Positions 24,279-46,460 of a stretch of 47,522 nt of DNA are shown piece after piece (the first letter of the stretch is position 1; each line of letters begins with the position of its first letter). The DNA is from Actinomycetes bacterium (GTDB taxonomy: Bacteria > Actinomycetota > Thermoleophilia > RBG-16-64-13). The stretch is taken from NCBI GenBank assembly GCA_021802965.1, contig JAJZQZ010000002.1, positions 1 through 47,522 on the forward strand, read 5' to 3'. A program made the translations under genes and the position numbers. The notes under the pieces were generated by a model. That model worked only from the letters and a program-made list of their open reading frames with translations, ran no database searches and was not told where the DNA came from.

Positions 24279-24917
24279 ATGTTGGTCGCCACCTGGATGA
24301 CGGCGGACCCGGTGACGGTGACTCCGCACGCGCGGCTCAAAGAGGCCGAGGACCTCATGACGAAGCATGAATTCCGGCATCTGCCGGTCGTCGACCAGGG
24401 GAAGCTGGTCGGGATCCTCACCATGAACGACGTGCGCAAGGCCAGCCCTTCGCCGGCCACCACTCTCTCCAGGGGAGAGGTCAACTACCTGCTCGACCAG
24501 ATCGTCGTCAGCGACGTCATGACACGTGACCCGATCACGGTCGGCGCGGACACCCCCGTGGAGGACGCCGCGCTCCTCGCCTACCGGCACAAGATCGGGG
24601 CGCTCCCGGTCGTGCAAGAAGGCCGGCTGGTCGGCATCATCACTCAGAGCGATCTGTTCGACATCATGATGAGCATCTTCCAGGCGGGAGAGGGCAACCG
24701 GCGCATAAGCATCGAGGGTATGCCCCGCGAGTTGGGTTCTTTCCGCAAGGTGGTCGACATCCTCGACGAGTATCGGACGCCCTTCAGCAGCATCCTGGTC
24801 TTTCCGCAGCGCGACTCCGGCCTCTACACCTACTTCGTCCGTGTCCCCGACCGCCAGCTGCCCGAGATCATCGAGGCGCTGAAGGTGGCGGGGATGCCGG
24901 CGACACACGTGTCGTAA
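24279..24917 (+). CDS. CBS-pair protein with a C-terminal ACT-like domain (AcuB-like)
   Basis: Two CBS repeats (MTADPVTVTP...HLPVVDQGKLVGILT and MTRDPITVGA...ALPVVQEGRLVGIIT) followed by a tail of about 70 aa. RBS GAGGAGGG. Confidence 0.7.
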   Translation: MLVATWMTADPVTVTPHARLKEAEDLMTKHEFRHLPVVDQGKLVGILTMNDVRKASPSPATTLSRGEVNYLLDQIVVSDVMTRDPITVGADTPVEDAALLAYRHKIGALPVVQEGRLVGIITQSDLFDIMMSIFQAGEGNRRISIEGMPRELGSFRKVVDILDEYRTPFSSILVFPQRDSGLYTYFVRVPDRQLPEIIEALKVAGMPATHVS

Positions 24918-26376
24918 CCCGGCCTCTTGCGTGGGCGGGCAGGTACGAGCGCGCGCTGCCCGCCCGCCCGCACCCGACGGCCACACCGATCTGATACGCG
25001 ACGTGTTCCGCCATGAAGAAGCCCAGGAAGACGGGGTAGCTCAGCCGCGGACGGCGGATCCAGTAATCGATGGCCGACACGTAGACCAGGGCGACGGCTG
25101 CGAAGAGCCACACCCCGTGGACGAGTAGGCCGATGCCGGCCAGAACCACCAGGTAGTACCTGACCAGGTGGAAGAGCACGAAGTGCAGCATCGACAGGTG
25201 CCCGCGGGCGACGGCGAACCACACCCGGCGTGTAGGCACGTGCACTCCCGCGCGTCTTAGGCGCATGCTGCGCCGCATCCCCTCCCACAGAGGCGGGCCC
25301 AGGGTGGCGAGCAGCAGCCACGGCTGGAGCAGGATCAGGGCCGCCGACAGCGCGATGACGCTGGCCAGCGGAGCGAAGGCCATCGGGAAGCGCTTCCGCT
25401 TATCCGGATGCAGGCTGTGCAGTGGAGCCTCCGACGTGCCGTACTCCGCCCGCCGGCGGAGCATCGCGCTCAGACGAGCGCGATGCTTGTGGCGCACGGT
25501 CCCGGCCGCCGCGTATATCAGGTACCCACCGGCCGCGCGCAATCTCCAGCACAGGTCGACGTCTTCGCCCACGCGCAGTTCCTCACGCAGCCCTCCGAGG
25601 GCGAGATACGCGGTGCGGCGCACGAGCAGGTTGCATGTGGGCACGTAGAACGTATCTGTCCCGGCGGCGGCCAGCAGGACGTGCCCGCCCATGTCGAGGG
25701 GCGATGCGACCTGCTCGTAGCGGTCGAGGCGCGACCGGTCGTAGTATCCGGCGACCCGCCCGCCGACCGCGACGGCGGCCTGCCAGGCGAAGTAGGGCAC
25801 GAGGTCGCGCAGCCAACCTTGCTCGGCCACGCAGTCGCTGTCGATGAAGGCGAGGATCTCGCCCCCGGCCTCCCGCGCCGCCCGGTTGCGGGAGTAGGAC
25901 TGGCCCTGGTTGCCCTCGTTGGCGAGGAAGCGGGCTCCATAGCGGGCGGCGACGCTCTCCGTGACGTCGGGCCGCTCGGAACCGTCGTCCACCACGATGA
26001 CCTCGAGGAGGTCCGGAGGATAGTCGAGCAAGGCGAGCGCCCCGAGGCAGTCGGCCAGATCGTCCGGGCGGTCCTTCGTGGGGATGACGACCGACACGCG
26101 CGGCGCCCAGGCCGGATCGGCCTGGGCGCCGACGACCTCCAGGATGCCCCGGCTGCGAAAGCGTTCGCAGAGGCGCAGCACGCGTTCCTCGTCGGTACCG
26201 ACGGCGGTCGCCAATCGGGTCACGGTCGCGCCTTGACGGGCGGCCTCGAGCATCCGGACGGCGCCCGCGTTGACGCTCATGACGCTGAGGGGGAGGGAGC
26301 AGACCACCCGCTGTTTTCCCTCGGCAGTGGTATCGAAGGCCACGCCGGCCCGCAGCCTGTAGGACAGAGGGATCAC
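24868..26376 (-). CDS. mftF: Mycofactocin-system-type GT2 glycosyltransferase with a C-terminal membrane region
   Basis: GTG 26376 overlaps the fixA stop (GTGA). The GT2 core is VSVVIPTKDRPDDL...VIVVDDGS...FIDSDC, followed by 4-5 predicted TM helices. It is the last gene of the mftABC-containing operon. The 277 N-terminal codons of track ORF 24868-27207 are a spurious overlap with fixA. Confidence 0.72.
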   Translation of the reverse strand: MIPLSYRLRAGVAFDTTAEGKQRVVCSLPLSVMSVNAGAVRMLEAARQGATVTRLATAVGTDEERVLRLCERFRSRGILEVVGAQADPAWAPRVSVVIPTKDRPDDLADCLGALALLDYPPDLLEVIVVDDGSERPDVTESVAARYGARFLANEGNQGQSYSRNRAAREAGGEILAFIDSDCVAEQGWLRDLVPYFAWQAAVAVGGRVAGYYDRSRLDRYEQVASPLDMGGHVLLAAAGTDTFYVPTCNLLVRRTAYLALGGLREELRVGEDVDLCWRLRAAGGYLIYAAAGTVRHKHRARLSAMLRRRAEYGTSEAPLHSLHPDKRKRFPMAFAPLASVIALSAALILLQPWLLLATLGPPLWEGMRRSMRLRRAGVHVPTRRVWFAVARGHLSMLHFVLFHLVRYYLVVLAGIGLLVHGVWLFAAVALVYVSAIDYWIRRPRLSYPVFLGFFMAEHVAYQIGVAVGCGRAGSARSYLPAHARGRVTTRVSPASPPPSAPR

Positions 26377-27293
26377 GGTCGGAGGTGGGACTCCACGGTG
26401 CTCGGGCCGCGGCGCAGATGATCGAGCCAGCCCTCGTCGCGCAAGAGCTGAAAGAGCTCCTCCGCGGCCTCCTCGCCGCCGGCTCGGACGAGGCGTTCCT
26501 CGCGGCGGGTCACGGCGCCCCGAACCAGCTTGAGGATCCGGTCGAAGGCGGGCAGGGACGAGTCGGGCGCGGTCAGGGGGTGCAGCTTCGGCCGGGGAGC
26601 GCGCGGGAGCGTCGTGTGGAGGGCGCTGTCGGCCTGGCGGATCCGCGCGAGGGGCACGCCAAGGTCGGCCAGGCTCCACACCGTGATGTCGGCGGTCGCC
26701 GCCCGCAGGCGGGCGGCGACAGGGATGTCTCGGGTGTCGGCCTCCGCCGGCGACACGGTGACTACCGCGGGAAGCGGGGCCGAGACCCGCTCGCGCCAGC
26801 CCCGAACCAGCGAGCGCTCGATCAGCAGTCTTCCACCCTCTCCCCAGCCGATATCGCCCGCCTGGGTGACACAGCACGTCCCCAGCGCTTCGGCCACGAG
26901 CACCCCGATCTGGCCTCCAGCTCCGAGGGGGCCGGGTGTGCCCAAGAGAGCCAGGTCGCACTCGAGAGCGGCGCCGGCAGCGGCCAGGATGACCGCCGCG
27001 CCTTGGGTGCGGGCCTCGGCGGCCTCTTCGTCCCAGATGCGTACCGCCCGGTCGGCGCCTTTGGCCAGGCCTTCGCGCAGCCACTCGTCGGCGCTCTGGG
27101 GCCCCAGGTGCACGAGGATGATCTCGATCTCGGGGCGGCCGATCCTCAGGCTCAGGGCGAGGTCGAGAGCACGGGCGTCGGCCGGTTTCACCCTGCAAAC
27201 AGACCACTCGGCGCGCACGCGTCTACTCGCGAGGTCCCGCTCGGGCGGTACCCGGAGGTCGAGGCCCAGCTCCTGGCACACCAGTATCTTCAC
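26373..27293 (-). CDS. fixA: Electron-transfer flavoprotein beta subunit (FixA/EtfB family), divergent, with a C-terminal extension
   Basis: Contains MKILVC, GADRAVRIWDE, DLALLG, GQIGVLVAEALG and LPAVVTV. At 306 aa it is longer than the usual length of roughly 250-260 aa. Confidence 0.82.
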   Translation of the reverse strand: MKILVCQELGLDLRVPPERDLASRRVRAEWSVCRVKPADARALDLALSLRIGRPEIEIILVHLGPQSADEWLREGLAKGADRAVRIWDEEAAEARTQGAAVILAAAGAALECDLALLGTPGPLGAGGQIGVLVAEALGTCCVTQAGDIGWGEGGRLLIERSLVRGWRERVSAPLPAVVTVSPAEADTRDIPVAARLRAATADITVWSLADLGVPLARIRQADSALHTTLPRAPRPKLHPLTAPDSSLPAFDRILKLVRGAVTRREERLVRAGGEEAAEELFQLLRDEGWLDHLRRGPSTVESHLRP

Positions 27294-27308
27294 CGGGTGA
27301 TCCTTCTT

Positions 27309-27584
27309 CTACGTGAGTCGGAAGCGCACACCGTAGCCTCCATGCGGGTAGTGCCAATCGAGCGCGCCTTGATCGCAGAGCAGCAGGCACGTGCCGCACT
27401 CGAGGCAGGTCTCGTACGCGAACTCGACGCGGCCGCGCTCCTCGCTCCACGTGTAGCAGCGGGCGGGGCACACGAAGGTGCACGCGCGGTGGGTGCACGC
27501 CTGGCAACGCTCGTGGTCGAGGCGGATGTGCGGCTCCGGGTGGATCCGGTAGCTGACCAGGTCGAACAGTTCGTCGACTACCAC
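27309..27584 (-). CDS. fixX: FixX-type ferredoxin-like protein
   Basis: 91 aa with CQACTHRACTFVCPARCY and CLECGTCLLLC. It overlaps the fixC end by 7 nt. Confidence 0.85.
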   Translation of the reverse strand: MVVDELFDLVSYRIHPEPHIRLDHERCQACTHRACTFVCPARCYTWSEERGRVEFAYETCLECGTCLLLCDQGALDWHYPHGGYGVRFRLT

Positions 27585-28885
27585 AGGAACGCCCTCCCTC
27601 CCTCGATGAGGTCGCCGATGACGCGCCGCAGCGGCAGGACATCCCGCAGCGCCTCCCGTCCCAGCTTGCCGATCTTCTGCTTCGGCTGTCCGTCCGACCG
27701 ATATATCTTCTCCATCAGCGTTCCCACCACCCTTGGGTAAGCCTCGAAGAGACGGTCGTGGTGCATGAAGTCGACGGCCCGGCGGAAAGTCGTCATGTCG
27801 CGGAGCACGAAGCTCTGCTTGAGGCGTTCCTGGTAGGCGCCGAGCCGGGCGGCGGAGAGATCGGCGGCGGTCAGGGCCTCATCGGTCACCTCGGCGGCGA
27901 TCATGCCGGATGTCATGGCCAGGTTCATGCCTTCCTGATTGAGCCCGTTCGTGTAGCAAAGACCGGCCGCGTCGCCCGCGAGCAGCAGCCCGGCGGTGGA
28001 GAGTCTGGGCACCATGCCGATGCCGCCCTCGGGGAGCAGATGCGCGGAGTACTCCACGAGCCGGCTCCCGCGCAGCAAGGGAGCCACGGCCGGTGACGCC
28101 ACGAAGCGATCGAGGAGGTCGTAGGGAGCCAGTCCACGCTGTTTGAGCGAATCCAGGTGCATGACCAGGCCGACCGAGAGGGTCTCTGTCTGGGTGTAGA
28201 CATAGCCCCCGCCGCGGATGCCGTCCGTGCAGCCGAGGACCTCATGGGTAGCCCCCTCTCGGCCCGTGAGCCCGAAACGGTCGTCGATCTCGGCTTCGCT
28301 TAAGCGATAGAGGGCGCGGATCCCCAGGGCCAGCTGGCTGGGCTTGAACCCGGCGTGCAGCCCCGCTTCTTGCGCGAGCAGAGAAAGGGTGCCGTCACAC
28401 GCGATGATTATCGGAGCCTCGAGATCGTCGCCCGGCGAGCCCAGGTTCACGCCTCGCACAGCCCCGTCGCGGACCAGCAGTCCGGCCACCCGGCACCCGC
28501 AGAGCAAGGTGACCCCTTGCTTCTCGGCCTGCTGCGCGTACCAGCGGTCGAACAGAGGGCGGTAGAGGGTGAAGCCGGTCAGAGCGCGTTCCGCTGAAGC
28601 GTCGGCATGGAAGGTCACCGAGGTCGACGAGGCCTCGCCCACCACCGTCAGCACCCGCTTGGTCACGGCCCGTTCCCAGGGAGCCTGCTCCCAGAAGTCG
28701 GGCAGCAGCCGCTCGGGAGTGGGACAGTACGCCATCATGCCGCCGAACATGTTCTTGCTGCCCGGGCTCTCCCCACGCTCGAGGAGCGCCACGCGTCTGC
28801 CCTTCTGGGCCAGAGTGAGGGCGGCGGTGGTCCCGGCGGGACCCGCGCCGACGACGATGGCGTCGAAGTCGCCGCGGTCGTTCAC
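27578..28885 (-). CDS. fixC: FAD-dependent ETF:quinone oxidoreductase (FixC family)
   Basis: GTG 28885 overlaps the fixB stop (GTGA). Contains the dinucleotide fold FDAIVVGAGPAGTTAALTLAQKGRRVALLERG. Confidence 0.85.
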   Translation of the reverse strand: MNDRGDFDAIVVGAGPAGTTAALTLAQKGRRVALLERGESPGSKNMFGGMMAYCPTPERLLPDFWEQAPWERAVTKRVLTVVGEASSTSVTFHADASAERALTGFTLYRPLFDRWYAQQAEKQGVTLLCGCRVAGLLVRDGAVRGVNLGSPGDDLEAPIIIACDGTLSLLAQEAGLHAGFKPSQLALGIRALYRLSEAEIDDRFGLTGREGATHEVLGCTDGIRGGGYVYTQTETLSVGLVMHLDSLKQRGLAPYDLLDRFVASPAVAPLLRGSRLVEYSAHLLPEGGIGMVPRLSTAGLLLAGDAAGLCYTNGLNQEGMNLAMTSGMIAAEVTDEALTAADLSAARLGAYQERLKQSFVLRDMTTFRRAVDFMHHDRLFEAYPRVVGTLMEKIYRSDGQPKQKIGKLGREALRDVLPLRRVIGDLIEGGRAFLW

Positions 28886-29877
28886 GAGCCTGCCCCTTCC
28901 GTGCCGGGGCCTCCGCCGGCCGCGGATGACCCCACGGCCTCCGGGGTGGGGGCTGCATCGCGCCACGCCTGGATCTTCCCGAGCAGGGCGGGGAGCACCT
29001 CCTCGAGCTCCGCGACGAAACCCACGTCCGAGAACTGGAACATCGGGGCTCGGGGGTCGTGGTTGACCGAGACCACCCGCTCAGCGCCGCGGATGCCCGC
29101 GACGTGGTGAGGCGAACCCGAGACCCCCAGGGCGATGTACAGGTCGGGCGCGACCGTCTTGCCCGTCTGTCCCACGAGTCGCTCCTTGGGAAGCCTGCCG
29201 TCGTCGACGACCGGGCGGGTAGCCCCGACCGAGCCTTCGAGCAGGTCGGCGAGTGCGCGGGCTTGGTCCAGCAGGTCCTCTCGGGCCGCGCCCGAGCCCA
29301 CCGCGACGATCCGCCGGGCGTGGACCAGGTCCACGGAGCGGGCGTCGGGCGCGAGAAGCTCGAGTCGCACGACCCCATCCAAGCCCGGGACCTCGAGATC
29401 CGCGCGCTCGACGGGCAGCTCGGCCGGGGGCGGCCCGCCTTCGGGATCGGCCGCGTCGACGATGAGGGTGACGACCTGTACCCGCCCGGGGGCGTACGTG
29501 GTCTCCTGCTCCAGCCACCCGCCCAGCGCCGGCCGGGTGAACGTCGGCACGCCTTCGGGGAAGGTGACCTGGGTGCAGCCGAGGAGGGCGCCTGTGCCCA
29601 GCCGATGGGCGAGCATCGGCGCCAGTTGCCGGCCGACATCCGAGTCGGGCAGCACCACGAGACCGACGGCGCTCTTGCTCACCCGGGCGGCCAGGGCTTC
29701 GGCCACGGCCTCGAGACGGTGAGGCGCCACGTCCGTCCAGGTCCACGCCGCGGCGGCGCCGCCGGCGGCTTCGGCGAGGCGCAAAGCCTGGGCGACCAAG
29801 GGGTCTCGCTGCGCGCCGTCACCGACGGAATCGGCCTCGGACGGCTCCAGCACGACCAGGATCGCGGGACCGTTCAT
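28882..29877 (-). CDS. fixB: Electron-transfer flavoprotein alpha subunit (FixB/EtfA family)
   Basis: ATG 29877 overlaps the upstream stop (ATGA). The FAD-binding C-terminal domain reads GATRPVVDDGRLPKERLVGQTGKTVAPDLYIALGVSGSPHHVAGI. Confidence 0.85.
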   Translation of the reverse strand: MNGPAILVVLEPSEADSVGDGAQRDPLVAQALRLAEAAGGAAAAWTWTDVAPHRLEAVAEALAARVSKSAVGLVVLPDSDVGRQLAPMLAHRLGTGALLGCTQVTFPEGVPTFTRPALGGWLEQETTYAPGRVQVVTLIVDAADPEGGPPPAELPVERADLEVPGLDGVVRLELLAPDARSVDLVHARRIVAVGSGAAREDLLDQARALADLLEGSVGATRPVVDDGRLPKERLVGQTGKTVAPDLYIALGVSGSPHHVAGIRGAERVVSVNHDPRAPMFQFSDVGFVAELEEVLPALLGKIQAWRDAAPTPEAVGSSAAGGGPGTEGAGS

Positions 29878-31823
29878 ACCCTCTTGCCGGCCATGTAGCC
29901 CTCGTGGATGGCCATGTCGACCCGGCGCGGGGCGACACAGTCGCCGATGCGGTACAGCTCGGGCACCTTGCCCTTGAGGGCGAAGTAGAGGCCGTCGTCG
30001 GCGTCGTTGCCCATGGCCGTCACGACGCTGTCGTAGCCGCCGAGGACGTCCCACACGTTGGAGTACACGTTGAACCCGTGGATCTCCGTGCCCTTGATCT
30101 CCATGACCGCGAAGTCGGGGGTGAAGGTGACTCCCTTCTGCAGCAGCCGCTGGCGCGTGAGGTAGAGGTCCTGGGACGGGCCCAGCTCGGCGCCCACGAA
30201 GAGGCTGGACGTGATGACATGCACCTTCTTGCCCAGCTCGGCCAGGAGCTCCGCTGTGGCCGTCGCCTGATGGTGGCCGTCGTAGTCGATGAGCACCACG
30301 TTCTCGCCGAGGTCCGCTTGGCCCATCAGGACCTGCCAGACGTTAAAGACCTTGGGTCCGTCGGCTCCGCCGACGGGGCAGGCCTTGGGACGAGAGCCCG
30401 TGGCCACGATGACGGCGTCCGGGGAACGGTCGAACAGTAGCGCGGGGGTCATCTCCACGCCCAGCTCCACCGGCACGCCCAGATGCTTGAGCTGGTTGCG
30501 CTCGTTGCGGACGATCACACCGAACTCCTCGCGGCCGGCGCCCTTCACGGCCAGGAGGATCTGCCCTCCGAGCTCCTCTCCCCGCTCGACCAGGGTGACG
30601 TCGTGGCCGCGCAGCGCGGCCGTCTTGGCCGCCCACATGCCGCCGGGGCCGCCGCCCACCACGAGCACACGCTTCTTGCGCAAGGTGGGCCTCAGGTTGG
30701 CTTCGCCCTCCGTGTCCTCGCATCCGACGGCCGGGTTCTGCACGCATCCGATGGTCTTGTTGAGCCCGACGCGCCCGTAGCAGTTCTGGTTGCACGCGAT
30801 GCAGTAGCGGATCTCCTCCGTCCGGCCCTGGCGCGCTTTCGAGGCGAAGTCCGGGTCGGCGATCTGCCCCCGGACGACGCCGATCATGTCGGCTTGACCC
30901 TCGGCGAGCACCCGTTCCGCCAGGGTCGGGTCGTTGATGCGGCCGGTGGCGAAGACCGGCAGGGTGGCCACCTCCTTGATGCCCGCGGCCAGAGGCACCG
31001 CGTAGCCCAGGGGCAGGTGGAGCGTCCCGCCCACCAAGTACAGGTTGTAGAAGGTGGAGAGGGTCAGATTGAAGAAGTCGAGGCCGCCCTTCTCCTGCAG
31101 GTACTGAGCGATCTGTTTGGCGTCGTCGAGGGTCAGGCCTCCGGGGATCAGCTCGTCGGCACAGAGGCGCACGCCGAGAGTGAAGTCGGTCCCCAGGGTC
31201 TTGCGCACGGCCGCGATCAGCTCCACGGCGAACCGGAGGCGGTTCTCGAAGGCTCCGCCGTATTCGTCGCTTCTGAAGTTGGTCAGCGGCGACATGAACT
31301 GTCGGGCCAGCGAGCTGTGTCCGAACTGCAGCTCGACCCCGTCGAAGCCGCCTTCGCGCACGTGGACGGCCGACCGGCAGAAGTACTCGATGACCTCCAC
31401 GATGTCCTCGGGCTCCATCGCTTTGGGGGTCTCCCGGTAGAGGACGTCGGGGATGGGAGAGGGCGCCCAGACCGGCAGGCGGGAGAGGCTGCCGCTGCAC
31501 TGCTGCCCGTTGTGGTTGAGCTGAGCGAAGATGCGGGTCTCGTAGGCGTGGACCGCGCGGGTGATCTTCTGGTAACCGGGAACGACCTGGGGTCGGAAGG
31601 CTTCGATCAGGTGCTCGTAGGCCCGGTCCGTGGGGTGGACCGACTGCTCCTCCGTGATGATGAGGCCGGCGCCGCCCCGGGCGCGCGCCGCGAGGTAGTG
31701 CATAAGGCGGTCGGTCGGCAGGCCGTCGGCGGCAAGGTTGGTGAGGTGGGCCGAGAACGAGATGCGGTTGGCGACCTCGACCCGGCCTATGCGCAGCGGG
31801 CTGAACAGGTTGGGGAACTGCAT
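29874..31823 (-). CDS. FMN/[4Fe-4S] OYE-family flavoprotein with a C-terminal FAD/ADP-binding domain (2,4-dienoyl-CoA reductase / trimethylamine-dehydrogenase family)
   Basis: Shows an OYE TIM-barrel N-terminal half, the Cys cluster CIACNQNCYGRVGLNKTIGC and an intact first Rossmann motif VLVVGGGPGGMWAAKTAALRGHDVTLVE. The second dinucleotide motif is degenerate (VVLIDYDGHHQATA). Confidence 0.85.
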   Translation of the reverse strand: MQFPNLFSPLRIGRVEVANRISFSAHLTNLAADGLPTDRLMHYLAARARGGAGLIITEEQSVHPTDRAYEHLIEAFRPQVVPGYQKITRAVHAYETRIFAQLNHNGQQCSGSLSRLPVWAPSPIPDVLYRETPKAMEPEDIVEVIEYFCRSAVHVREGGFDGVELQFGHSSLARQFMSPLTNFRSDEYGGAFENRLRFAVELIAAVRKTLGTDFTLGVRLCADELIPGGLTLDDAKQIAQYLQEKGGLDFFNLTLSTFYNLYLVGGTLHLPLGYAVPLAAGIKEVATLPVFATGRINDPTLAERVLAEGQADMIGVVRGQIADPDFASKARQGRTEEIRYCIACNQNCYGRVGLNKTIGCVQNPAVGCEDTEGEANLRPTLRKKRVLVVGGGPGGMWAAKTAALRGHDVTLVERGEELGGQILLAVKGAGREEFGVIVRNERNQLKHLGVPVELGVEMTPALLFDRSPDAVIVATGSRPKACPVGGADGPKVFNVWQVLMGQADLGENVVLIDYDGHHQATATAELLAELGKKVHVITSSLFVGAELGPSQDLYLTRQRLLQKGVTFTPDFAVMEIKGTEIHGFNVYSNVWDVLGGYDSVVTAMGNDADDGLYFALKGKVPELYRIGDCVAPRRVDMAIHEGYMAGKRV

Positions 31824-31826
31824 GGC

Positions 31827-32849
31827 CTAGGCCACCTCCACTGCGGATCGCAGGCATTCCGGGTCCGGCAGACCCAGGGTTTCGGTCAGGAAATACGCGA
31901 CCGCCGGGCACCCCCCGTGGCATACCGAGAAGCGGTCGCAGGCCCGGCAGGCGTCGACCTCGAGCTCCCGGAACCGCTCGAACACGGGGGAAGAGTCGAA
32001 GATACTCGCCAGGCTTTCGTCGACGACACTACCCGCGAGGAAGGCCGGGTCGCACAGGAAGGCGCAGGGATAGATCGACCCGTCGGGGGCGATCGCGCAG
32101 GTCATCTTGGCCGCTCCGCACATGTTGAGCCCCAGATGGCGGCGGCTGTCGGGAGCCAGGGCGAAGAAGGAGTCGCCGGTGAGGATCTCGGGCCGCTCGC
32201 CCAGAAACCGGGACAGCTCGGTGAGCTGCTGCCGGGTGAGGCGGTACTCGTCCCACGTGGCGCAACCCCCTCCCGACGGGCGGAAGCGGGAGAGGCGGGT
32301 CTTCGCGCCGTAGTGCCGGCACAGCCGGTCGAACTCGGCGATCTGGCCCACGTTGAGTCGGGTCACGACCATATTAAGGCTGTAGTGAGGGAACCCTCGC
32401 GAAGCGAGCAGCTCGATGCCCGCGAGGATCCGGTCGAAGGTGCCCCCGCCACGGATGACGTCGTTGGTGGCCCGATCGGACCCGTCCAGGCTCACCTGCA
32501 GGTAGAGCGATTCCATTGCGAGGAGCTCGTCGAGTAAAGCATGGTCCAGAAGGGTGCCGTTGGTGCTGACGCAGGTGGTGATGCCCCGGGCCTGCGCATA
32601 GCGCAACAGGTCGAGGAAGTCGTCGCGCAAGAACGGTTCCCCCCCGCCGAAGTTGACCTGGAACACCTGCATCCGCGCCAGCTCGTCGATGAGGGCCCGG
32701 CACTGGTCGGTATTCAGCTCGCCCTGACCGCGGGCGCGGAGGTCCGCCGAGAGGCAATGGCTGCAGCGGAGGTTGCAGGCCTCCGTTATCTCCCAGGTGA
32801 CGTTGACGGGAGCGTTGAGGCGGGTGTTACTCAGCTGGCGGTGCGGCAA
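31827..32849 (-). CDS. mftC: Radical SAM/SPASM peptide maturase, mycofactocin MftC-type
   Basis: Contains TWEITEACNLRCSHC (Cx3Cx2C) and C-terminal SPASM cysteines (CGAAKMTC...YPCAF...CRACDRFSVCHGGC). The apparent TTG start overlaps mftB by 23 nt. Confidence 0.85.
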   Translation of the reverse strand: MPHRQLSNTRLNAPVNVTWEITEACNLRCSHCLSADLRARGQGELNTDQCRALIDELARMQVFQVNFGGGEPFLRDDFLDLLRYAQARGITTCVSTNGTLLDHALLDELLAMESLYLQVSLDGSDRATNDVIRGGGTFDRILAGIELLASRGFPHYSLNMVVTRLNVGQIAEFDRLCRHYGAKTRLSRFRPSGGGCATWDEYRLTRQQLTELSRFLGERPEILTGDSFFALAPDSRRHLGLNMCGAAKMTCAIAPDGSIYPCAFLCDPAFLAGSVVDESLASIFDSSPVFERFRELEVDACRACDRFSVCHGGCPAVAYFLTETLGLPDPECLRSAVEVA

Positions 32850-33078
32850 CGATCAACCCTTTGTGCATCAGGTTCTGCAGGAGGCGCGACACGGCCGCTT
32901 CGCGCGGTCCTTCGAGCGGCTCGATTCCGAGCACACGCCGCTCTCCCGTGAACGGGGGAGGGGTGAGGCTGTCGCCCGAGCGCACGAAGGTCAGGTTGGT
33001 CGAGCGGGTGTCGTAGAAGAGCAGCCCGAACGACTCCTGGCGCACGCGCACCCAGTCGGGCACAACATACTCGGTCAT
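32827..33078 (-). CDS. mftB: Mycofactocin biosynthesis chaperone (PqqD/RRE-like)
   Basis: 83 aa with WVRVRQESFGLLFYDTRSTNLTFV, typical of MftB/PqqD-family peptide-binding proteins. It sits between the precursor and the radical SAM gene. Confidence 0.75.
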   Translation of the reverse strand: MTEYVVPDWVRVRQESFGLLFYDTRSTNLTFVRSGDSLTPPPFTGERRVLGIEPLEGPREAAVSRLLQNLMHKGLIVAAPPAE

Positions 33079-33124
33079 ACGAGCGGGCGTGGCGGTGGTC
33101 AGAGGAGCGGGAGACCCATCCCTG

Positions 33125-33250
33125 TCAATAGACGCCGCAGATACCGTCGACGGCCAGATCTTCGACCTCGATCTCTTCGAGGATGGCGGGCTCGTCGCAG
33201 TCGGGGCATCCGCCGTTCAGGACGTCGCCGTCGCTGGGGCAAGGATCCAT
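33125..33250 (-). CDS. mftA: Mycofactocin-type RiPP precursor peptide (41 aa), absent from the ORF track
   Basis: Hand translation of the - strand gives MDPCPSDGDVLNGGCPDCDEPAILEEIEVEDLAVDGICGVY followed by a stop. The RBS GGAGG lies 8 nt upstream. The C-terminus matches the conserved MftA ending (..VEEVSIDGMCGVY in mycobacteria). Confidence 0.85.
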   Translation of the reverse strand: MDPCPSDGDVLNGGCPDCDEPAILEEIEVEDLAVDGICGVY

Positions 33251-33276
33251 TGAGAAACCTCCGTGCGGGGTGAACA

Positions 33277-33297
33277 CCGGACGCCCCTCGCGTCCGG
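33277..33297 (-). promoter_or_regulatory. Hairpin in the mftA leader, 27-47 nt upstream of the ATG
   Basis: CCGGACGC-CCCTC-GCGTCCGG is a perfect 8-bp stem, extended to 9 bp by the flanking A76-T98 pair. Confidence 0.35.
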
Positions 33298-33329
33298 TAG
33301 TGCTCTATTGTCTCACGTTAATCGTGGAA

Positions 33330-33358
33330 CGGCGGCGAAGGCCTGGCCTCCGCCGCCG
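33330..33358 (-). terminator. GC-rich hairpin between the Zn-ADH gene and mftA (possible terminator or attenuator)
   Basis: CGGCGGCGAAGGCC / GGCCTCCGCCGCCG inverted repeat with one mismatch and no U-tract. Confidence 0.35.
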
Positions 33359-33368
33359 AGCGCCATGG

Positions 33369-33436
33369 GGCAGCTGAGAAGTGACGCTTCGCCGTCGGGC
33401 GCATTCCCGGCGGCCAGGGCTTCGATCTCAGCAGCC
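33369..33436 (-). repeat. Short, internally deleted form (68 nt) of the TIR-bounded repeat seen at 437-596
   Basis: Read on the - strand it is GGCTGCTGAGATCGAAGCCCTGGCC...GCGCCCGACGGCGAAGCGTCACTTCTCAGCTGCC. The left ~27 nt and right ~37 nt align to the two ends of the 160-nt copy. Its own 11-nt termini are inverted repeats with one mismatch. Confidence 0.65.
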
Positions 33437-33455
33437 GCCCATGTCGGGCCTCAGA

Positions 33456-34565
33456 TCAGTCCCACTCGCAGACCCAGCGCCCGTTGAGCTGCCGCTTCTC
33501 CATCTTCTCCATGATGTCGTTCAGCTCTTCGAGCTTGAATTTGCCGGCCACCAGCTTGTCGAGCTTCATCTCGCCTGTCATGGCCAGGTCGCACAGCTTG
33601 GGGATGTCGTCGTGGGTCGAAATGGAGCCATACAGGCCGCCGATCATCGACTTCTGCTGCAGCGGCATGAAGGTCAGGGGCATCTGGGCCACCTGGTCCT
33701 GAGGCATGACGCCGACCACTATCAGGCGACCGGCCATGGCGAGGGTCCACCAGGCCTGTACGAGGGCGCCGGCGTCGCCGATGGCCTCGAAGGCCACGTC
33801 CACCCCGCCGCCGGTGAGCTCCTGGATGATCGGTACCGGGTCTTCCTTCGAGTTGCAGATGAAGTGGGTGGCGCCCATGGCCATCGCGAGCTCGCGACGG
33901 TCCTCTTCGAGGTCCACGGCGATGACCGGGTTGGCATGGCGCGCCCGGGCGGCCCGCAGCACGTTGAGGCCGACACCGCCCATGCCCCATATCGCGACCT
34001 TGTCGCCGGGCTGGATGTTGGCCAGGTTGGTGACCGAGCCCCAGCCGGTCGGGATGCAGCAGCTCATGAGGGCGGCCCACTCGAGGGGCATGTCCTTGCG
34101 GATCGGCACGACGCCGGTCTCGGGCACGACGTTGTAGTCAGAGAAGCCGGACACGAAATTGCCGTGGAGCACCGGCTTACCGGCAGCGTCGGTCATACGG
34201 GACGTGCCGTCGAGCATGGTGCCGGCGAGGAAGTGCGGGAAGTTGCCCGTGCACACGTTGCCGAGCCCGCTGCGGCACATCGGGCAGTCACCGCAGGGGA
34301 TCATCCACGTGCTGGCGACGTGGTCTCCCACCTGCACGCGGGTAACGCCCGGGCCCACGGCCTCGACCACCCCTGCGCATTCGTGACCGGCCACCATGGG
34401 CGTCGCGATCTGGATGCGGCCCATGGCCACGCTTAGGTCGCTGTGGCAGTACCCGGTGTAAGCGTACTTGACGAGCACCTCGCCGGCCTGCGGCGGGGCC
34501 AGCTCCAGCTCCTCGATGTTGTAGCCCTTCCCTATGTCTCTTAGAACGGCAGCTCTGATCTTCAC
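33456..34565 (-). CDS. Zn-dependent alcohol dehydrogenase (class-III / nicotinoprotein-like MDR)
   Basis: Contains GYCHSDLS, GHECAG, the structural Zn site CGDCPMCRSGLGNVC and the Rossmann segment IWGMGGVG. GTG start after the RBS AAAGGAGAG. It lies directly upstream of the mft operon. Confidence 0.9.
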   Translation of the reverse strand: MKIRAAVLRDIGKGYNIEELELAPPQAGEVLVKYAYTGYCHSDLSVAMGRIQIATPMVAGHECAGVVEAVGPGVTRVQVGDHVASTWMIPCGDCPMCRSGLGNVCTGNFPHFLAGTMLDGTSRMTDAAGKPVLHGNFVSGFSDYNVVPETGVVPIRKDMPLEWAALMSCCIPTGWGSVTNLANIQPGDKVAIWGMGGVGLNVLRAARARHANPVIAVDLEEDRRELAMAMGATHFICNSKEDPVPIIQELTGGGVDVAFEAIGDAGALVQAWWTLAMAGRLIVVGVMPQDQVAQMPLTFMPLQQKSMIGGLYGSISTHDDIPKLCDLAMTGEMKLDKLVAGKFKLEELNDIMEKMEKRQLNGRWVCEWD

Positions 34566-34614
34566 CCGATCTCTCCTTTGTAGTCTGTTCGCCTCGAACC
34601 TGGTTGCATCGAAC

Positions 34615-35685
34615 CTACGTCTGCGCGGCCGCCTCCGTGGCGTCCGCTTCCTCCAGTGGGCCGCTGTCCGCGCCTGGAGAGCGCCCGAGCCCCCGCACCC
34701 GGTACCCGACGGGCATCAGCTGCAGTCCGAACCGTTCCTCGATGGTCCCCCACAGCCCTCTCGGCAGCAGGAGCGCGAAGAGGATGGCGACGACGCCGAG
34801 GCCGATCAGGTACCAGACTCCCAGATCGGCGAACCAGTCTTGGATCAGAAAGAGCAGGATGGCCCCCAGGACCGGTCCTTCGAACGTCCCCAGACCGCCC
34901 ACCAGCACCATGAAGATGGCGAAGGCGGTCCACTGGACGCTGAAGATCGAGTTGGGCTGGATGAAGAGGGTGTTGGCGAGGGTCATGGCGCCGGCGGCGC
35001 CGAAGCCGACCGCCGCGAAGATGTAGAGCACGCGCTTGCCCGCCATCACGCGCACACCCACCGACGCGGCCGCCTGTTCGTCGTCGCGGATGGCCTGTAG
35101 TGACGAGCCCATTCGGCTGCGCAGCAACACGAAGAGCACGATCAGAAGCACGGCCGTGGCGCCCAGGGCGAACCAGTAGGTGTAATCCTGCCTGTGTTCG
35201 GGCCCGTACTGGTTGAGCTCGATCAGCGATATCCCGGTGCCGGCGCCCAGCCCCTTGTCCAGTGACACGATCACCGTGAACGCGGCCGCGACCACCCAGG
35301 TGGCGATGGAGAACTGGCCGCCCGTGAGCCGCAGGAGCAAGAAGGAGAAGACCACCGAGATGGCGCCGGCGAGGATGATGGCCAGGAACATGGCGGGGTA
35401 GGGGGGGACGCCGTGGTGCGCGAACCACACGGTGCCGTATGCGCCGATGCCGATGTAGGCCTGCTGTCCCACAGAGACCAGCCCGCCGTAGCCCGCGAGA
35501 GCGTTCCACATGGACGCGATCATGATGAGGATGAAGAGGGCGGTGAGCTTCTGGACGACGTTCGCGCTCATGAACATCGGGAAGAAGGCGAGCACCACTA
35601 CCAGCAGTCCTGCGCCTCCGGTGAAAGCCCGAGAGACCTTCGTCCAGCGCTGGACCGAGAGGCCGGTGGTCCGCAGGGGGTTCAT
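34615..35685 (-). CDS. ABC permease, LivM-like (second HAAT system)
   Basis: ATG 35685 overlaps the LivH-like stop (ATGA). Contains MWNALAGYGGLVSVGQQAYIGIGAY. Confidence 0.85.
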   Translation of the reverse strand: MNPLRTTGLSVQRWTKVSRAFTGGAGLLVVVLAFFPMFMSANVVQKLTALFILIMIASMWNALAGYGGLVSVGQQAYIGIGAYGTVWFAHHGVPPYPAMFLAIILAGAISVVFSFLLLRLTGGQFSIATWVVAAAFTVIVSLDKGLGAGTGISLIELNQYGPEHRQDYTYWFALGATAVLLIVLFVLLRSRMGSSLQAIRDDEQAAASVGVRVMAGKRVLYIFAAVGFGAAGAMTLANTLFIQPNSIFSVQWTAFAIFMVLVGGLGTFEGPVLGAILLFLIQDWFADLGVWYLIGLGVVAILFALLLPRGLWGTIEERFGLQLMPVGYRVRGLGRSPGADSGPLEEADATEAAAQT

Positions 35686-36560
35686 GCTGTGCCCTCCCGC
35701 GCCGCCAAGATCCCGCCGCTCCGTACCGCGATGACCGCGAGAAACACCAGGTGGCCGGCCAGGTTGGCGTACTGCGGGTTGATCTGGGCGCCCAGGGTCT
35801 GAGCGACTCCAAGGATGAGCCCGCCGACCAAGGTGCCCCAGAGGGACCCGAAGCCTCCGATGACCACCGCTTCGAAGGCGAATATCAGCTGGGTCGGGCC
35901 CGCCGAGGGTTCCACCACGGCCCGGATCGCCAGAAAGACCCCGGCGAGGGCCGCCGTGGCGACGGCGATGCCCGCCGCCCGTGCGTAGACGCCCCGGGAG
36001 TCGATGCCCACGAGCTCGGCCGTGTCCGAGTCCTGGGCGGTGGCGCGCATCGCCCTGCCGAGCGTGGTGCGGCGCAGGAAGAGGGAGAGCCCGCCGAGGA
36101 CCGCGACGGCCACGGCCAAGATCAGGATCCCCAGGGCCGAGATCGAGAACTGCTGGCTCACCTTCCAGCTGGTCGTCGTCACGGCCCCCGCCTGCCCTCC
36201 AAGCGAGCGCACGTCGGGCGAGAAGACCCCGAGGAGGACGTTGTCGATCACGATCGCGAGGCCGAACGTAGTAAGAAGCGGGATAAGGATACCCGCCCGG
36301 AGGCTGCGTTCGAGGAGCCCGCGTTGGAGGGCCCACCCGACGCCGAACATGACGATGAGGCTTGGGATGAGTACGAGGAAGGGGGAGAGGGAGGTCTTGT
36401 CGACGATCCACCAGGTGATGAAGGCGCCGAGTACGGCGAGGGAGCCGTGCGCCAGGTTGATGATGCGCATCACGCCGAAGATGAGGGAAAGGCCGCACGC
36501 GAGCAGCGCGTAGAAACCGCCCAGGATGATGCCTTGGAAGACCGCGTTCACATAGGTCAT
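35682..36560 (-). CDS. ABC permease, LivH-like (second HAAT system)
   Basis: Begins MTYVNAVFQGIILGGFYALLACGLSLIFG and has an ATGA overlap with the upstream ATPase gene. Confidence 0.85.
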   Translation of the reverse strand: MTYVNAVFQGIILGGFYALLACGLSLIFGVMRIINLAHGSLAVLGAFITWWIVDKTSLSPFLVLIPSLIVMFGVGWALQRGLLERSLRAGILIPLLTTFGLAIVIDNVLLGVFSPDVRSLGGQAGAVTTTSWKVSQQFSISALGILILAVAVAVLGGLSLFLRRTTLGRAMRATAQDSDTAELVGIDSRGVYARAAGIAVATAALAGVFLAIRAVVEPSAGPTQLIFAFEAVVIGGFGSLWGTLVGGLILGVAQTLGAQINPQYANLAGHLVFLAVIAVRSGGILAAREGTA

Positions 36561-37288
36561 GCCGGAGCTCCCTTCGGCTGCACCCTGCCGAGCCCGAAGT
36601 AGGCTTCGGTGATCTCGCGGCTGGTGAGACGGTCGGCCGGTCCCTCGAGCACCATCCGCCCCTCGAGCATGCAGATGATCCGTTGCGCCACCTTGCGCGC
36701 CCGGGCGAGGTCCTGCTCGACGAGGACGATGGTGGCTCCGCCGTCGATCAAGGTGTGCAGCGAGCGGTAGACGCCTTCGACGGCGATGGGCGACAGCCCC
36801 AGGGAGACCTCGTCCAAGAGGAGCAAGCGCGGGTTGGTCATGAGCGCGCGCCCGATGGCGCAGGCCTGCTGCTCGCCCCCGGAGAGGGTGGCCGCCCGCT
36901 TGAATCGCAGCGGCTTCAAGATCGGGAAGGCTTCCAAGACCGTATCGACCTTCCATGCGCCTCCACGGCGTCCGTTGGCCCCCGCGACGATCAGGTTCTC
37001 TTCGACGGTCATGTCCGGGAACAGACGGCGGCCTTCGGGGACCAGGGCGAGCCCGGCCCGCACTCGCCGGTGCGCCGGCATGGCGGTGACGTCCGCACCT
37101 TCGAAGACCACGCGGCCGCTGGCCGGCCGATGGGCCCCGGCGATGGCCCGCATGAGGGTCGTCTTTCCGGCGCCGTTCGCGCCGACGAGGGCGAGGATCT
37201 CCCCTTCGCCGACCTCGAAGCTGACATCCCGGACGGCCTTGAGCAGCCCGTGCCGGACGTCGAGGTTCTCGACCGAGAGCAGACTCAT
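36557..37288 (-). CDS. ABC ATP-binding protein, LivF-like
   Basis: Contains GANGAGKTT, LSGGEQQ and LLLLDE, with an ATGA overlap with the LivG-like gene. Confidence 0.9.
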   Translation of the reverse strand: MSLLSVENLDVRHGLLKAVRDVSFEVGEGEILALVGANGAGKTTLMRAIAGAHRPASGRVVFEGADVTAMPAHRRVRAGLALVPEGRRLFPDMTVEENLIVAGANGRRGGAWKVDTVLEAFPILKPLRFKRAATLSGGEQQACAIGRALMTNPRLLLLDEVSLGLSPIAVEGVYRSLHTLIDGGATIVLVEQDLARARKVAQRIICMLEGRMVLEGPADRLTSREITEAYFGLGRVQPKGAPA

Positions 37289-38025
37289 ACCACCCCGCTC
37301 CCCAGGTAGGCGTCTATCACGGCTTCGTCGCGCAGCACCGAGTCCGGGTCGCCATCGACGATGACCCGGCCGGCGTTCATGCACACCAGGCGGTCCACCA
37401 CCTGCAACAGGACGTGGACTATGTGCTCGATCCAGACGATGGCCACGCCCTGCGCGCGAAGCTGTTTGATGGTCAGCACGAGTTCGGTCGCTTCCTCGTC
37501 GGTGAGGCCGCCGCCGATCTCGTCCAGCAGCACGACCACCGGGTCGGTGGCCAGAGCCCGGGCCAGCTCAAGGCGCTTGCGGTGAAGGAGGCCGAGGCTT
37601 TCCGCCCGTCGGTTGGCGAGCGGGGTCAGGCCGCACAGGTCGAGCACCTCGAGACAGCGCTCGTAGCAGCGCGAGCCGCGCAGGCCTCCGCCGCTGGATG
37701 CACTCACGAAGACGTTCTCGAACACCGTCATATCCCCGAAAGGCCGCGGGATCCGGAAGGCGCGGCCTATGCCCAGGCGCGAACGCTGCGTGGCGGAGGT
37801 CCCGTTGATCTGCTGGTCATGGAACCACACGGAACCCCCGTTGGGCTCGAGGGATCCGGCCAGCACGTTGAGGAGGGTCGTCTTGCCGGCTCCGTTGGGA
37901 CCGACTATGCCGACCGCCTCATCGGCCCCCACCGAGAAGTCGACCCCGTCGAGGACGGCGAGCGCCCCGAAGTGCTTATGGATGTCCCGTGCCGAAAGTA
38001 CGGGTGTAGCTGACTCCTTGGACAT
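37285..38025 (-). CDS. ABC ATP-binding protein, LivG-like
   Basis: Contains GPNGAGKTT and a DIHKHFGALAV opening. Confidence 0.9.
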   Translation of the reverse strand: MSKESATPVLSARDIHKHFGALAVLDGVDFSVGADEAVGIVGPNGAGKTTLLNVLAGSLEPNGGSVWFHDQQINGTSATQRSRLGIGRAFRIPRPFGDMTVFENVFVSASSGGGLRGSRCYERCLEVLDLCGLTPLANRRAESLGLLHRKRLELARALATDPVVVLLDEIGGGLTDEEATELVLTIKQLRAQGVAIVWIEHIVHVLLQVVDRLVCMNAGRVIVDGDPDSVLRDEAVIDAYLGSGVV

Positions 38026-38060
38026 GCATCCCCCGTGATCGCCTGCACTTTATCGTGCGG

Positions 38061-38115
38061 CCGGCGGTCGGACCGCCGGGATACGTGCAAGGGCGGCTCG
38101 GAAGCCGCCCTTGCA
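38061..38115 (-). terminator. Two tandem GC hairpins between the binding-protein gene and the ATPase gene (intra-operon attenuator or mRNA stabiliser)
   Basis: The first is CCGGCGGTC-G-GACCGCCGG (38061-38079). The second is TGCAAGGGCGGCT-CGGA-AGCCGCCCTTGCA (38086-38115, 13-bp perfect stem). Confidence 0.5.
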
Positions 38116-38154
38116 TCATGACGCTACCTGCCCCGCTCAGTGGCGCACGACCGT

Positions 38155-39531
38155 CTACGCATACGGCTGCAGCTTCGCCGAAGTGGGGATGTTCGGGTCT
38201 TCGACGTTGTCGACGCAGACCCAGTCGAAGGGCCACTTGCCGGTGCCCTTCACCCATTGGCCGTTCACCAAAGTGGTGGGGACGACGTTGGGCGACACCG
38301 GGAACTTGCCCCATTCGAGGATGCCCAGAGGCGTCTCGACCTTCATCTTGGCCATCGCCGCGGCCACGGCCGCTTTGTCCTTGGGATTGCCCGATGCCTT
38401 CAAGGCTTCGATGCCCACGTCGAAGAGGGAGAGGCTCGGGCCGAGCTGCTGGTTCCACTGCTTGCCCGAAGCCTTCTCGTAGCCGTCGCCCAACTCTTTC
38501 GAGGTGACGCCGGTGAGGGTGGACTTGTACGGGAAGATCGGCGCCCAGTAGGCGGCCCCGGCCAGGTTGTTGCCCAGGTCGCCGAGGGCTTCGATCTGGG
38601 AGGGGAAGAGGCCAGTCTTGGCCAGCTGCACGATCTTCGGCTTGAAGCCCTGCTGTGCGGCCTGACGCCAGAAGGTCGTGAAGTCGGGCGGGATGGGGAA
38701 GGTGTTGAACATCTCGCAGTTCTCGCTCTTGAACTTGGAGATCTGGGCCGAGTAGTCGTTCGTGCCGTTCTCGTACGCGCCCGGGTCGACGATGGTGTAT
38801 CCGTCCTTGGCCAGCAGCGGGCCCAGGGCGGCGCGGATGGCGTTGCCGTCGGCGTCGTTGGGCCACATCACACCGATCTTCTTGTTCGTGGGTATCTGCG
38901 GCCACGAGGACACATAGGTCTGATGGAACTGCTCGACACCGAAGGCGAAGATGAACCCGAACTTGAAGGGCGACGGCTGGTCCGGCTTGGCGCCGCGGCC
39001 GAAGTACCACGCCTCCCAGGGGCATACCGTGCAGATGTGGGGGACGCCTGCCGCCTCGGCCGCGTCGGAAACCGGGTTGATGGTCTCGGGGGTGGACGTC
39101 GTGAGGATGAGGTCGACCTTGTCGGAGTTGATCAGCTCCTGGGCGACCTGAGCGCCCATGGCCGGGTTGGACTGGCCGTCCTTGTCGATGATCTCTACGT
39201 TGTACTTCTTCCCGCCTATGTCGAGGCCGTTGGCGAGGGCCTTTTTCGCCAGGTCGATGACATAGGGGTCGGGTTCGCCGAAGCCCGAGGCCGGGCCGGT
39301 GCGGGGACTGACAAAACCTATCTTGATGGTCTCGCCGGCCGGGGCGGATCCGGCGGTGGTGGCTGTGCCGCCAGCGGTCGTCGCCGAGCCGCCGGTCGTG
39401 GTCGTGGTGCTCGAACCACACGCGGCGAGCACGCCCGGGACCGCCAGCAGTCCCCCCGCGATGCCCGCGCGCTTGAGCAAGTCGCGCCTCGAGATCTGAT
39501 CCGCAAGGATGCGGTCAATCTTGTCAGCCAT
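38155..39531 (-). CDS. ABC substrate-binding lipoprotein (LivK-like) with a Tat-type signal
   Basis: Contains SRRDLLKRAGIAGGLLAVPGVLAAC (twin-Arg plus lipobox) and a Thr/Gly/Ala linker. ATG 39531 follows GGGGGG. Confidence 0.85.
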   Translation of the reverse strand: MADKIDRILADQISRRDLLKRAGIAGGLLAVPGVLAACGSSTTTTTGGSATTAGGTATTAGSAPAGETIKIGFVSPRTGPASGFGEPDPYVIDLAKKALANGLDIGGKKYNVEIIDKDGQSNPAMGAQVAQELINSDKVDLILTTSTPETINPVSDAAEAAGVPHICTVCPWEAWYFGRGAKPDQPSPFKFGFIFAFGVEQFHQTYVSSWPQIPTNKKIGVMWPNDADGNAIRAALGPLLAKDGYTIVDPGAYENGTNDYSAQISKFKSENCEMFNTFPIPPDFTTFWRQAAQQGFKPKIVQLAKTGLFPSQIEALGDLGNNLAGAAYWAPIFPYKSTLTGVTSKELGDGYEKASGKQWNQQLGPSLSLFDVGIEALKASGNPKDKAAVAAAMAKMKVETPLGILEWGKFPVSPNVVPTTLVNGQWVKGTGKWPFDWVCVDNVEDPNIPTSAKLQPYA

Positions 39532-39569
39532 GGTACCCCCCCTGTCCGTGACTGCGGATGATGCCCCGA

Positions 39570-39599
39570 AATCTAACACCTTCGTGAGCGCACTGTCAA
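39570..39599 (-). promoter_or_regulatory. Candidate promoter of the second ABC operon
   Basis: On the - strand: TTGACA (39599-39594), an 18-nt spacer, then TAGATT (39575-39570). It lies about 40 nt upstream of the ATG. Confidence 0.45.
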
Positions 39600-40354: not shown

Positions 40355-40475
40355 GCCGCTACCCGAGCATGAAGACGGCGGGGCGCACCACGATGCCGTG
40401 GCGGTGTTCCGTGCGCACGATCCCCCCTGTGCAGGATGTAGACCCCCGAAGACGGCGGCGTCGCCGCCTGGGGAC

Positions 40476-42332: not shown

Positions 42333-42335
42333 GTG

Positions 42336-46431: not shown

Positions 46432-46460
46432 CACACGCAACCAGGCATGGGGGAGGCATC

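Follow-up and report, generated by a model that had tools for sequence, protein, structure and literature searches.

A 41-residue peptide that ends in GVY is encoded beside mftB- and mftC-like genes in the 47.5-kb window analysed here (the whole stretch of DNA presented above), and its N-terminal leader carries three cysteines. These features raise the question of what kind of precursor this is, and whether the leader cysteines matter to the system that would mature it. Our reading is that the peptide is the mftA product of a Thermoleophilia/Gaiellales-like lineage of uncultured Actinomycetota, that it belongs to the already catalogued variant-type mycofactocin system and that its leader cysteines are dispensable; we give this reading a probability of roughly 0.8.

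The precursor and its family

The minus-strand ORF is as first described, and it has a GGAGG ribosome-binding site (Table 1). Translation of 33125..33250 (ATG...TAT TGA) yields MDPCPSDGDVLNGGCPDCDEPAILEEIEVEDLAVDGICGVY, 41 aa, with cysteines at residues 4, 15, 18 and 38, and the three leader cysteines of the original prediction (C4, C15 and C18, with the CPDC pair) can all be read in it. No other ORF in the window ends in CGVY followed by a stop. There is no in-frame ATG, GTG or TTG 3′ of the ATG within the ORF, so the 18 N-terminal residues belong to any product of mftA; on the 5′ side, only a GTG at 33277, nine codons away from the ATG, could serve as another start. The peptide had been called unannotated, which holds for the ORF track only, as homologues already carry the name 'mycofactocin precursor' at JGI or 'variant-type mycofactocin precursor' at NCBI.

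The NCBIfam HMM NF040489 (variant-type mycofactocin precursor) matches residues 19-41 of the peptide over profile positions 1-23 of 23 (41.3 bits, cutoff 30, E = 1.4e-10). TIGR03969 (MftA) matches the same residues marginally (26.9 bits, cutoff 25), below its exception model NF040489. The C-terminus reads ...EEIE(V/I)E(D/E)L-x-VDGICGVY with an immediate stop, and the gene lies directly upstream of mftB and mftC, which is the gene context of NF040489. The products of these two genes also score above the cutoffs of their models, bearing out the proposal of an MftA-family precursor beside MftB and MftC. A conserved C-terminal MftA core had likewise been anticipated and is present, but it spans 23 residues (19-41) and not 13; over this block the window peptide is identical to the consensus of 83 relatives of 41 residues. 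A Pfam scan of the peptide gave no match, and PF23709 is attached to only a few mftA homologues. PDB sequence searches with MftA and MftB returned nothing useful, there being no solved structure of MftA, MftB or MftC. Our literature search found no paper on the variant-type mycofactocin system, and no mycofactocin paper for Thermoleophilia, Gaiellales or Syntrophorhabdus; the NF040489 family is known at the database level only and is experimentally untouched.

With this family the window peptide shares the common length class of 41 aa, the identical 23-residue C-terminus and the neighbouring genes (ADH, mftB, mftC, OYE2, ETF/FixCX and mftF). It differs in having all three of the sporadic leader cysteines, at 4/15/18 and not at 5/14/17. 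Canonical Mycobacterium MftA (TIGR03969) resembles the window peptide in being short, in its acidic leader and ...DG-x-CGVY C-terminus, in the position of its gene before mftB/mftC and in the presumed chemistry on the C-terminal Val-Tyr. However, the N-terminal extension in the window is longer, and to our knowledge mycobacterial MftA has no such leader cysteines. The canonical core is IDGMCGVY (BGCFlow preprint, 10.1101/2023.06.14.545018) compared with VDGICGVY in the window.

A protein search with the mftA peptide recovered 246 homologous peptides, and the peptide comparisons drawn from it rest on the 120 that were listed; these hardly vary over their last 23 residues and are highly diverse at the N-terminus. 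We obtained a sample that is independent of the N-terminus by back-translating the invariant core to a degenerate DNA pattern and scanning two collections with it, which gave 144 loci, 43 from species-representative genomes and 101 from metagenome contigs. The 43 genome loci, all from MAGs, come from Thermoleophilia, Gaiellales, other Actinomycetota, Syntrophorhabdales, other 'delta proteobacteria', Acidobacteriota and Spirochaetes. The hosts of the variant operon are uncultured and possibly anaerobic lineages across phyla, where habitat is read from taxon names only. Two leader styles are seen: an actinobacterial one ('MDT..DD.LA..P.P...DEPAILEE...'), in which 41 residues is the commonest length (83/162 unique), and a Lys/Glu-rich one in other phyla. 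Within the 41-residue actinobacterial class, moderate conservation in the leader is found at M1, D2, T3/T4, D7, L9, A10 and P13.

Haft (2011; PMC3023750) described MftA N-termini as unalignable, with conservation in the last 23 residues only, and suspected that long N-termini were start-site errors. Contrary to that suspicion, relatives at the actinobacterial loci begin at an equivalent 'MD' and have the same ACGGAGG site before the start. Together with the lack of a downstream start in the window ORF, this shared start and site indicate that the N-terminal extension of variant MftA is a conserved translated feature and not a start-site artefact. For the window itself, mftA is one more member of a catalogued family and a correct small-ORF call.

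Could this ORF nevertheless be an unexpressed or decaying copy, whose odd leader reflects lost constraint? The leader does depart from the family consensus by several indels, and a scan of the 205-bp gap between the ADH gene and mftA found no sigma-70-like promoter or terminator, which is a weak test for Actinomycetota. Yet the 23-residue block is intact and identical to the consensus of the family, neither the ribosome-binding site nor the start shows damage, and this is the only mftA of a complete, intact operon. We therefore regard a silent or decaying copy as highly improbable.

Table 1. Features of the mftA operon in the window (positions count from the first letter of the window)
Feature	Position	Strand	Remarks
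Zn-dependent alcohol dehydrogenase (ADH)	33456..34565	-	best match TIGR03989 (NDMA-dependent ADH) 321.6 bits, below cutoff 440
Ribosome-binding site GGAGG	33258..33262	-	7 nt before mftA ATG
mftA, 41-aa variant-type mycofactocin precursor	33125..33250	-	stop codon 33125-33127
Variable N-terminal leader, residues 1-18	33197..33250	-	hypervariable among relatives; Cys sporadic, confined to three columns
Leader Cys codons	C4 = 33241-33239, C15 = 33208-33206, C18 = 33199-33197	-	
Conserved 23-residue block DEPAILEEIEVEDLAVDGICGVY, residues 19-41	33128..33196	-	HMM match; near-invariant across 83 41-mers
Core Cys codon, C38	33139-33137	-	
mftB, peptide chaperone (RRE-type)	32827..33078	-	TIGR03967 40.3 bits, cutoff 33
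mftC, radical SAM/SPASM maturase	31827..32849	-	TIGR03962 356.4 bits, cutoff 265; Radical_SAM + SPASM
OYE2, mycofactocin-system FadH/OYE-family oxidoreductase 2	29874..31823	-	TIGR03997 948 bits, cutoff 793; Oxidored_FMN + Pyr_redox_2
ETF alpha/FixB-like (etfA)	28882..29873	-	NF038209 (mycofactocin-associated etfA) 145.6 bits, below cutoff 240; ETF + ETF_alpha
FixC-like ETF:quinone oxidoreductase flavoprotein	27578..28966	-	NF007542/NF007450 E about 1e-93 to 1e-96, below cutoffs; ETFQO_UQ-bd
FixX-like ferredoxin, 91 aa, Cys-rich	27309..27584	-	conserved position between fixC and etfB
ETF beta/FixA-like (etfB)	26373..27293	-	TIGR04503 (mycofactocin-associated etfB) 80.9 bits, below cutoff 200; ETF
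mftF glycosyltransferase	24868..26340, start approximate	-	TIGR03965 346.7 bits, cutoff 280

The operon and its proposed chemistry

The gene belongs to an operon of ten genes in the order ADH-mftA-mftB-mftC-OYE2-etfA-fixC-fixX-etfB-mftF (window 24868-34565, minus strand). The ADH gene lies directly upstream of mftA, a pairing kept in most related loci, and its product is a probable mycofactocin-dependent redox partner. Among solved structures the closest relative of MftC is PqqE (6c8v, E = 1.4e-23), and CteB (5wgg) is also among the closest. OYE2 joins an FMN domain to a pyridine-nucleotide-disulphide-type FAD/NAD(P)-binding domain, and is expected from its homologues to carry a 4Fe-4S cluster. 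Its nearest solved structures are 2-naphthoyl-CoA reductase, dienoyl-CoA reductase, histamine dehydrogenase and trimethylamine dehydrogenase, the last of which passes its electrons to an ETF. The start of ETF alpha is approximate, the mechanical ORF extending to 30054 and overlapping the OYE gene, and the HMM match of mftF covers residues 298-757 of a 779-aa mechanical ORF (24868..27207). For FixX, the homologue at locus L145 has a weak match to Fer4_ETF_QO, plus weak or faint ones to Fer4_9 and Fer4_2.

A scan of all GC3-supported window ORFs of at least about 200 aa found no mftD (TIGR03966/FMN_dh), mftE (TIGR03964/creatininase) or mftR (TIGR03968, TetR-type) in the 47.5 kb; the regulators that do occur are a GntR-family protein (39641-40477) and a MalT-like protein (42402-45350). 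MftD, MftE and MftR are found in most but not all mycofactocin species (Haft 2011, PMC3023750). Relative to the canonical mftABCDEF cluster, the window retains mftF but lacks mftD, mftE and mftR, and has OYE2, ETF and FixCX between mftC and mftF. The mft clusters of Saccharopolyspora also lack mftD and contain a TIGR03997 FadH/OYE oxidoreductase, and S. erythraea is said to produce methylated mycofactocin (BGCFlow preprint, 10.1101/2023.06.14.545018), which suggests that mftD-less TIGR03997 clusters are functional. Those clusters reportedly match the remaining mycofactocin genes, mftD alone being named as missing, so mftE would be included, whereas the window lacks mftE as well; moreover, they have the canonical IDGMCGVY end, and the window has ETF/FixCX in its operon. 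A wider parallel is offered by PqqA/PqqD/PqqE, where a short peptide, a small chaperone and a radical SAM/SPASM enzyme likewise give a redox cofactor from few residues. In that system, however, the modified residues are Glu and Tyr, the downstream enzymes are others and the precursor has no sequence similarity.

Is this arrangement peculiar to precursors with cysteines, as would follow if a Cys-rich leader marked the clusters that carry Fix/OYE genes? We searched the 43 genome loci with the window proteins by tblastn. OYE2 directly follows mftC in 29 of the 33 informative loci (the other 10 of the 43 end too early to judge its position), and EtfA, FixC, FixX, EtfB and sometimes MftF lie behind OYE2 wherever the locus is long enough. 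Moreover, all ten genes of the window operon recur at locus L145 (a 458-kb contig, seen in a 20-kb view), where the 10 kb on each side contain no creatininase or FMN_dh gene. The order ADH-mftA-B-C-OYE2-EtfA-FixC-FixX-EtfB(-MftF) is kept in Actinomycetota, in Syntrophorhabdales and in other groups, independently of leader cysteines, and only 7 of the 29 OYE2-bearing loci have any. Since the OYE/Fix genes are present at nearly every variant locus, with cysteines or without, the cysteines are no marker of such a subset, and the proposed link is not supported; the Fix/OYE association is a trait of the variant-type family as a whole and spans phyla. Four loci deviate. In L038 OYE2 is missing and mftF directly follows mftC, L043 and L032 have an OYE2-like gene that is either displaced or more divergent, and in L008 no OYE2 was seen downstream of mftC.

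In the mycobacterial pathway, MftA is bound by MftB, and MftC acts on its C-terminal Val-Tyr by decarboxylation and cyclisation; the cofactor derives from this Val-Tyr moiety alone and is glycosylated by MftF (PMC11778925). By analogy, we infer a similar route here. The chaperone MftB would bind the acidic part of the conserved block, about residues 19-36, and present the C-terminus to MftC, which would oxidatively decarboxylate Tyr41 and crosslink it to Val40. The Val-Tyr-derived moiety alone would then go on to the cofactor, to be glycosylated later by MftF, and the neighbouring alcohol dehydrogenase would use this mycofactocin-type cofactor. As residues 19-41 are nearly invariant and residues 1-18 variable, what matters for recognition and chemistry seems to lie in the last 23 residues, and the conserved block presumably holds both the MftB/MftC recognition segment and the C-terminal Val-Tyr core. 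Residues 1-18 would be a fast-evolving leader extension, with cysteines that the system does not need.

Since the window lacks MftD and MftE, the later steps may depart from the mycobacterial scheme. A reasonable candidate reading is that OYE2, ETF and FixCX would act either as an O2-free substitute for the missing MftD (amine) oxidation, or in re-oxidation of the cofactor towards quinone. An operon of mftABC, OYE2, ETF/FixCX and mftF without mftD or mftE is arguably more interesting than the leader cysteines, as it could reveal an O2-free way of making or recycling mycofactocin. Its components are already named in NCBIfam.

Leader cysteines among relatives

Three leader cysteines had been noted as unusual, and they are. 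In the DNA scan, 81 unique peptides with a ..P-x-[IV]-[ILM]-EEIE-core junction have no leader cysteine in 56 cases, one in 19, two in five and three in one. When the DNA scan was pooled with the protein-search matches listed, 161 unique actinobacterial-type peptides besides that of the window were available. At least one leader cysteine is present in 48 of these (30%) and none in 70%, and a single peptide has three (L079/P0006, MDTTCDDALANAPCPACEEEP...). A leader CxxC (C-P/S-x-C) occurs in six other unique peptides among the matches listed and the DNA scan (P0004, P0006/L079, P0020, P0025, P0032 and P0118), five of them inside the core-junction filter and P0004, with a QEP junction outside it, added. 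Conservation of the cysteines among close relatives is largely contradicted: the loci nearest to the window by MftC/OYE2/ADH identity (L013, L010, L005 and L040) keep the operon with 0 or 1 leader cysteine, L013 having 77% identity to the window in MftC and 84% in OYE2. The three leader cysteines of the window are therefore a rare, non-conserved lineage feature and do not define the variant system. A global enrichment of cysteine in the leaders was also considered and rejected, the overall frequency being 2.6% compared with 1.7-2.3% expected from leader codon base composition. Leader cysteine stands at the level of base composition; it is simply not purged as in ordinary proteins.

These counts bear directly on the suggestion that the leader cysteines are extra radical-SAM/SPASM crosslink sites, in which case the product would be sactipeptide- or ranthipeptide-like instead of a cofactor. 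Such families conserve their crosslinked cysteines, and here most relatives lack them; what does not vary is the GVY end, and the sole invariant cysteine is C38 of the core. As a SPASM enzyme, MftC has thioether-forming maturases among its relatives (StsB, PapB and CteB matches), but as an MftC equivalog it scores 356 bits against a cutoff of 265, far above the thioether-maturase models, and MftB and MftF are present. The antiSMASH rules do class clusters without mftD as ranthipeptide (BGCFlow preprint, 10.1101/2023.06.14.545018); against this stands the methylated mycofactocin reported for S. erythraea, from a genus with mftD-less TIGR03997 mft clusters. A crosslinked product of this kind seems to us very improbable.

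More remarkable than the number of cysteines is where they fall. In the 41-residue class they lie almost only in alignment columns 5, 14 and 17, which hold 13 of the 15 leader cysteines in the DNA-scan set (seven in column 17, three in column 14 and three in column 5) and 29 of the 32 in the protein-search set, among the matches listed. In neither set did any of 20000 within-sequence shuffles reach the observed concentration, a statistic without tree control that shared ancestry inflates. With leaders collapsed to 35 clusters, column 17 accounts for 9 of 22 cluster-column events, column 14 for 5 and column 5 for 4. All combinations of cysteines at these columns occur, on varied leader backgrounds. 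In the DNA alignment the window codons for C4, C15-P and C18 are homologous to columns 5/14/17, shifted by small indels, which makes the window peptide one of two carriers of the complete triad among the 161 relatives and itself. Mutational accessibility is insufficient as the sole cause, given that columns 6, 8 and 15, equally rich in Gly/Ser, are almost free of cysteine. Search bias was rejected too: the query cysteines are offset by one column, and the set that is independent of the N-terminus gives the same columns. Such a pattern is not expected under pure neutrality and suggests that these positions are retained or used repeatedly. It fits an ancestral triad that decays in most lineages, and it also fits a facultative function.

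A facultative function could mean that C4 and C15-P-D-C18, possibly with the invariant core Cys38, are functional in the window lineage, be it in Zn/Fe binding, as a ligand to an open site on an auxiliary Fe-S cluster of MftC, or as a thiol/disulfide switch by which precursor stability or maturation would follow redox state. The use of the same columns over diverse leader backgrounds, the alignment of the window codons with them and the C-P/S-x-C knuckle in six other peptides speak for such a role, and C38 would bring the number of potential ligands to four. However, 70% of actinobacterial-type leaders do without any cysteine, the nearest loci have 0 or 1 and still keep the operon, and in columns 5/14/17 cysteine is freely replaced by Ser, Gly, Asp, Arg and Tyr. 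Co-occurrence of C14 and C17 (5 observed) is marginal, at Fisher p = 0.058 without phylogenetic control. A ligand role would have a precedent in CteB, one of the nearest solved relatives of the window MftC, in which a substrate cysteine ligates an auxiliary cluster; but the window MftB has no cysteine, and the leader has a single proper CxxC knuckle, the first half reading C4-P-S-D7. A two-knuckle zinc-ribbon or rubredoxin-like motif was rejected, as there is one CxxC (C15-P-D-C18) and no Pfam or PDB match. On balance we consider a functional triad in the window lineage unlikely.

Dispensable cysteines remain our preferred reading. The N-terminal extension, cysteines included, appears dispensable judging from its variation among relatives, and C4, C15 and C18 are most likely remnants or polymorphisms of a dispensable triad that is sporadic in one actinobacterial subfamily; as a column-restricted polymorphism the triad is a small curiosity. 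Because the same three columns are reused and CxxC pairs occur in six other peptides, we keep a lineage-specific metal-binding or redox role in view, as a slim chance. It is similarly doubtful that, across the Thermoleophilia/Gaiellales-like subfamily, the polymorphic C...C-P-x-C and the core cysteine would together make a site for a metal or an Fe-S cluster, or act as a disulfide switch. If they did, the precursor of a redox cofactor would gain its own redox- or metal-dependent control of maturation, with a larger effect possible where the leader stays attached in mftE-less systems.

Two further observations concern leader sequences. Acidobacteriota-style leaders (...E-L/S-E-C-K-N...EPDILEEIEIEDFAVDGICGVY) have one leader cysteine in L004, L053/L092, L077 and L108, which alternates with Tyr in otherwise similar peptides (L049, L141), and so present a second case of polymorphic leader cysteine in the variant MftA family. 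In the DNA-scan set the column 17 cysteine codon is always TGT (L010, L065, L079, L102, L023 and others), and most other column 17 codons also end in T (GCT, ACT, TCT, AAT, AGT, GGT), whereas just 19% of third positions in leaders are T. Shared ancestry combined with rapid non-synonymous change may lie behind this, or else a constraint at the nucleotide level.

The wider window

Further dehydrogenases are encoded near the cluster at 6237-7025, 20656-22086, 44887-46431 and 45687-47225, all on the plus strand. They comprise an SDR with a TIGR03971 match (mycofactocin-coupled SDR; 190 bits, cutoff 300), two Zn-dependent ADH paralogues and another SDR, and it is possible that these SDR/ADH enzymes are additional mycofactocin-dependent enzymes. 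Another stretch of the window looks like a catabolic island. A gene pair at 1022-5194 (plus strand) has strong sub-threshold matches to acetophenone carboxylase gamma/delta subunits and caprolactamase (hydantoinase/oxoprolinase family), and is followed by a URO-D-like gene, an SDR, a glycerol dehydrogenase, an LDH/MDH-like gene and a ketopantoate reductase.

There are two ABC transporter sets of the branched-chain-amino-acid/urea type, at 15462-20498 (plus strand) and 34562-39579 (minus strand), each with a binding protein, two permeases and two ATPases; one set immediately precedes the ADH-mftA operon and shares its strand. A transketolase is split into N- and C-terminal halves encoded by adjacent genes (22335-24207, plus strand) and is followed by a CBS-domain protein (24279-24917), both convergent to the end of the mft operon. 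Lastly, the MalT-like regulator (minus strand) is a LuxR-family protein of 982 aa with a match to NF003420 of 377 bits, below cutoff, and its gene adjoins that of an acyl-CoA dehydrogenase (41172-42386).
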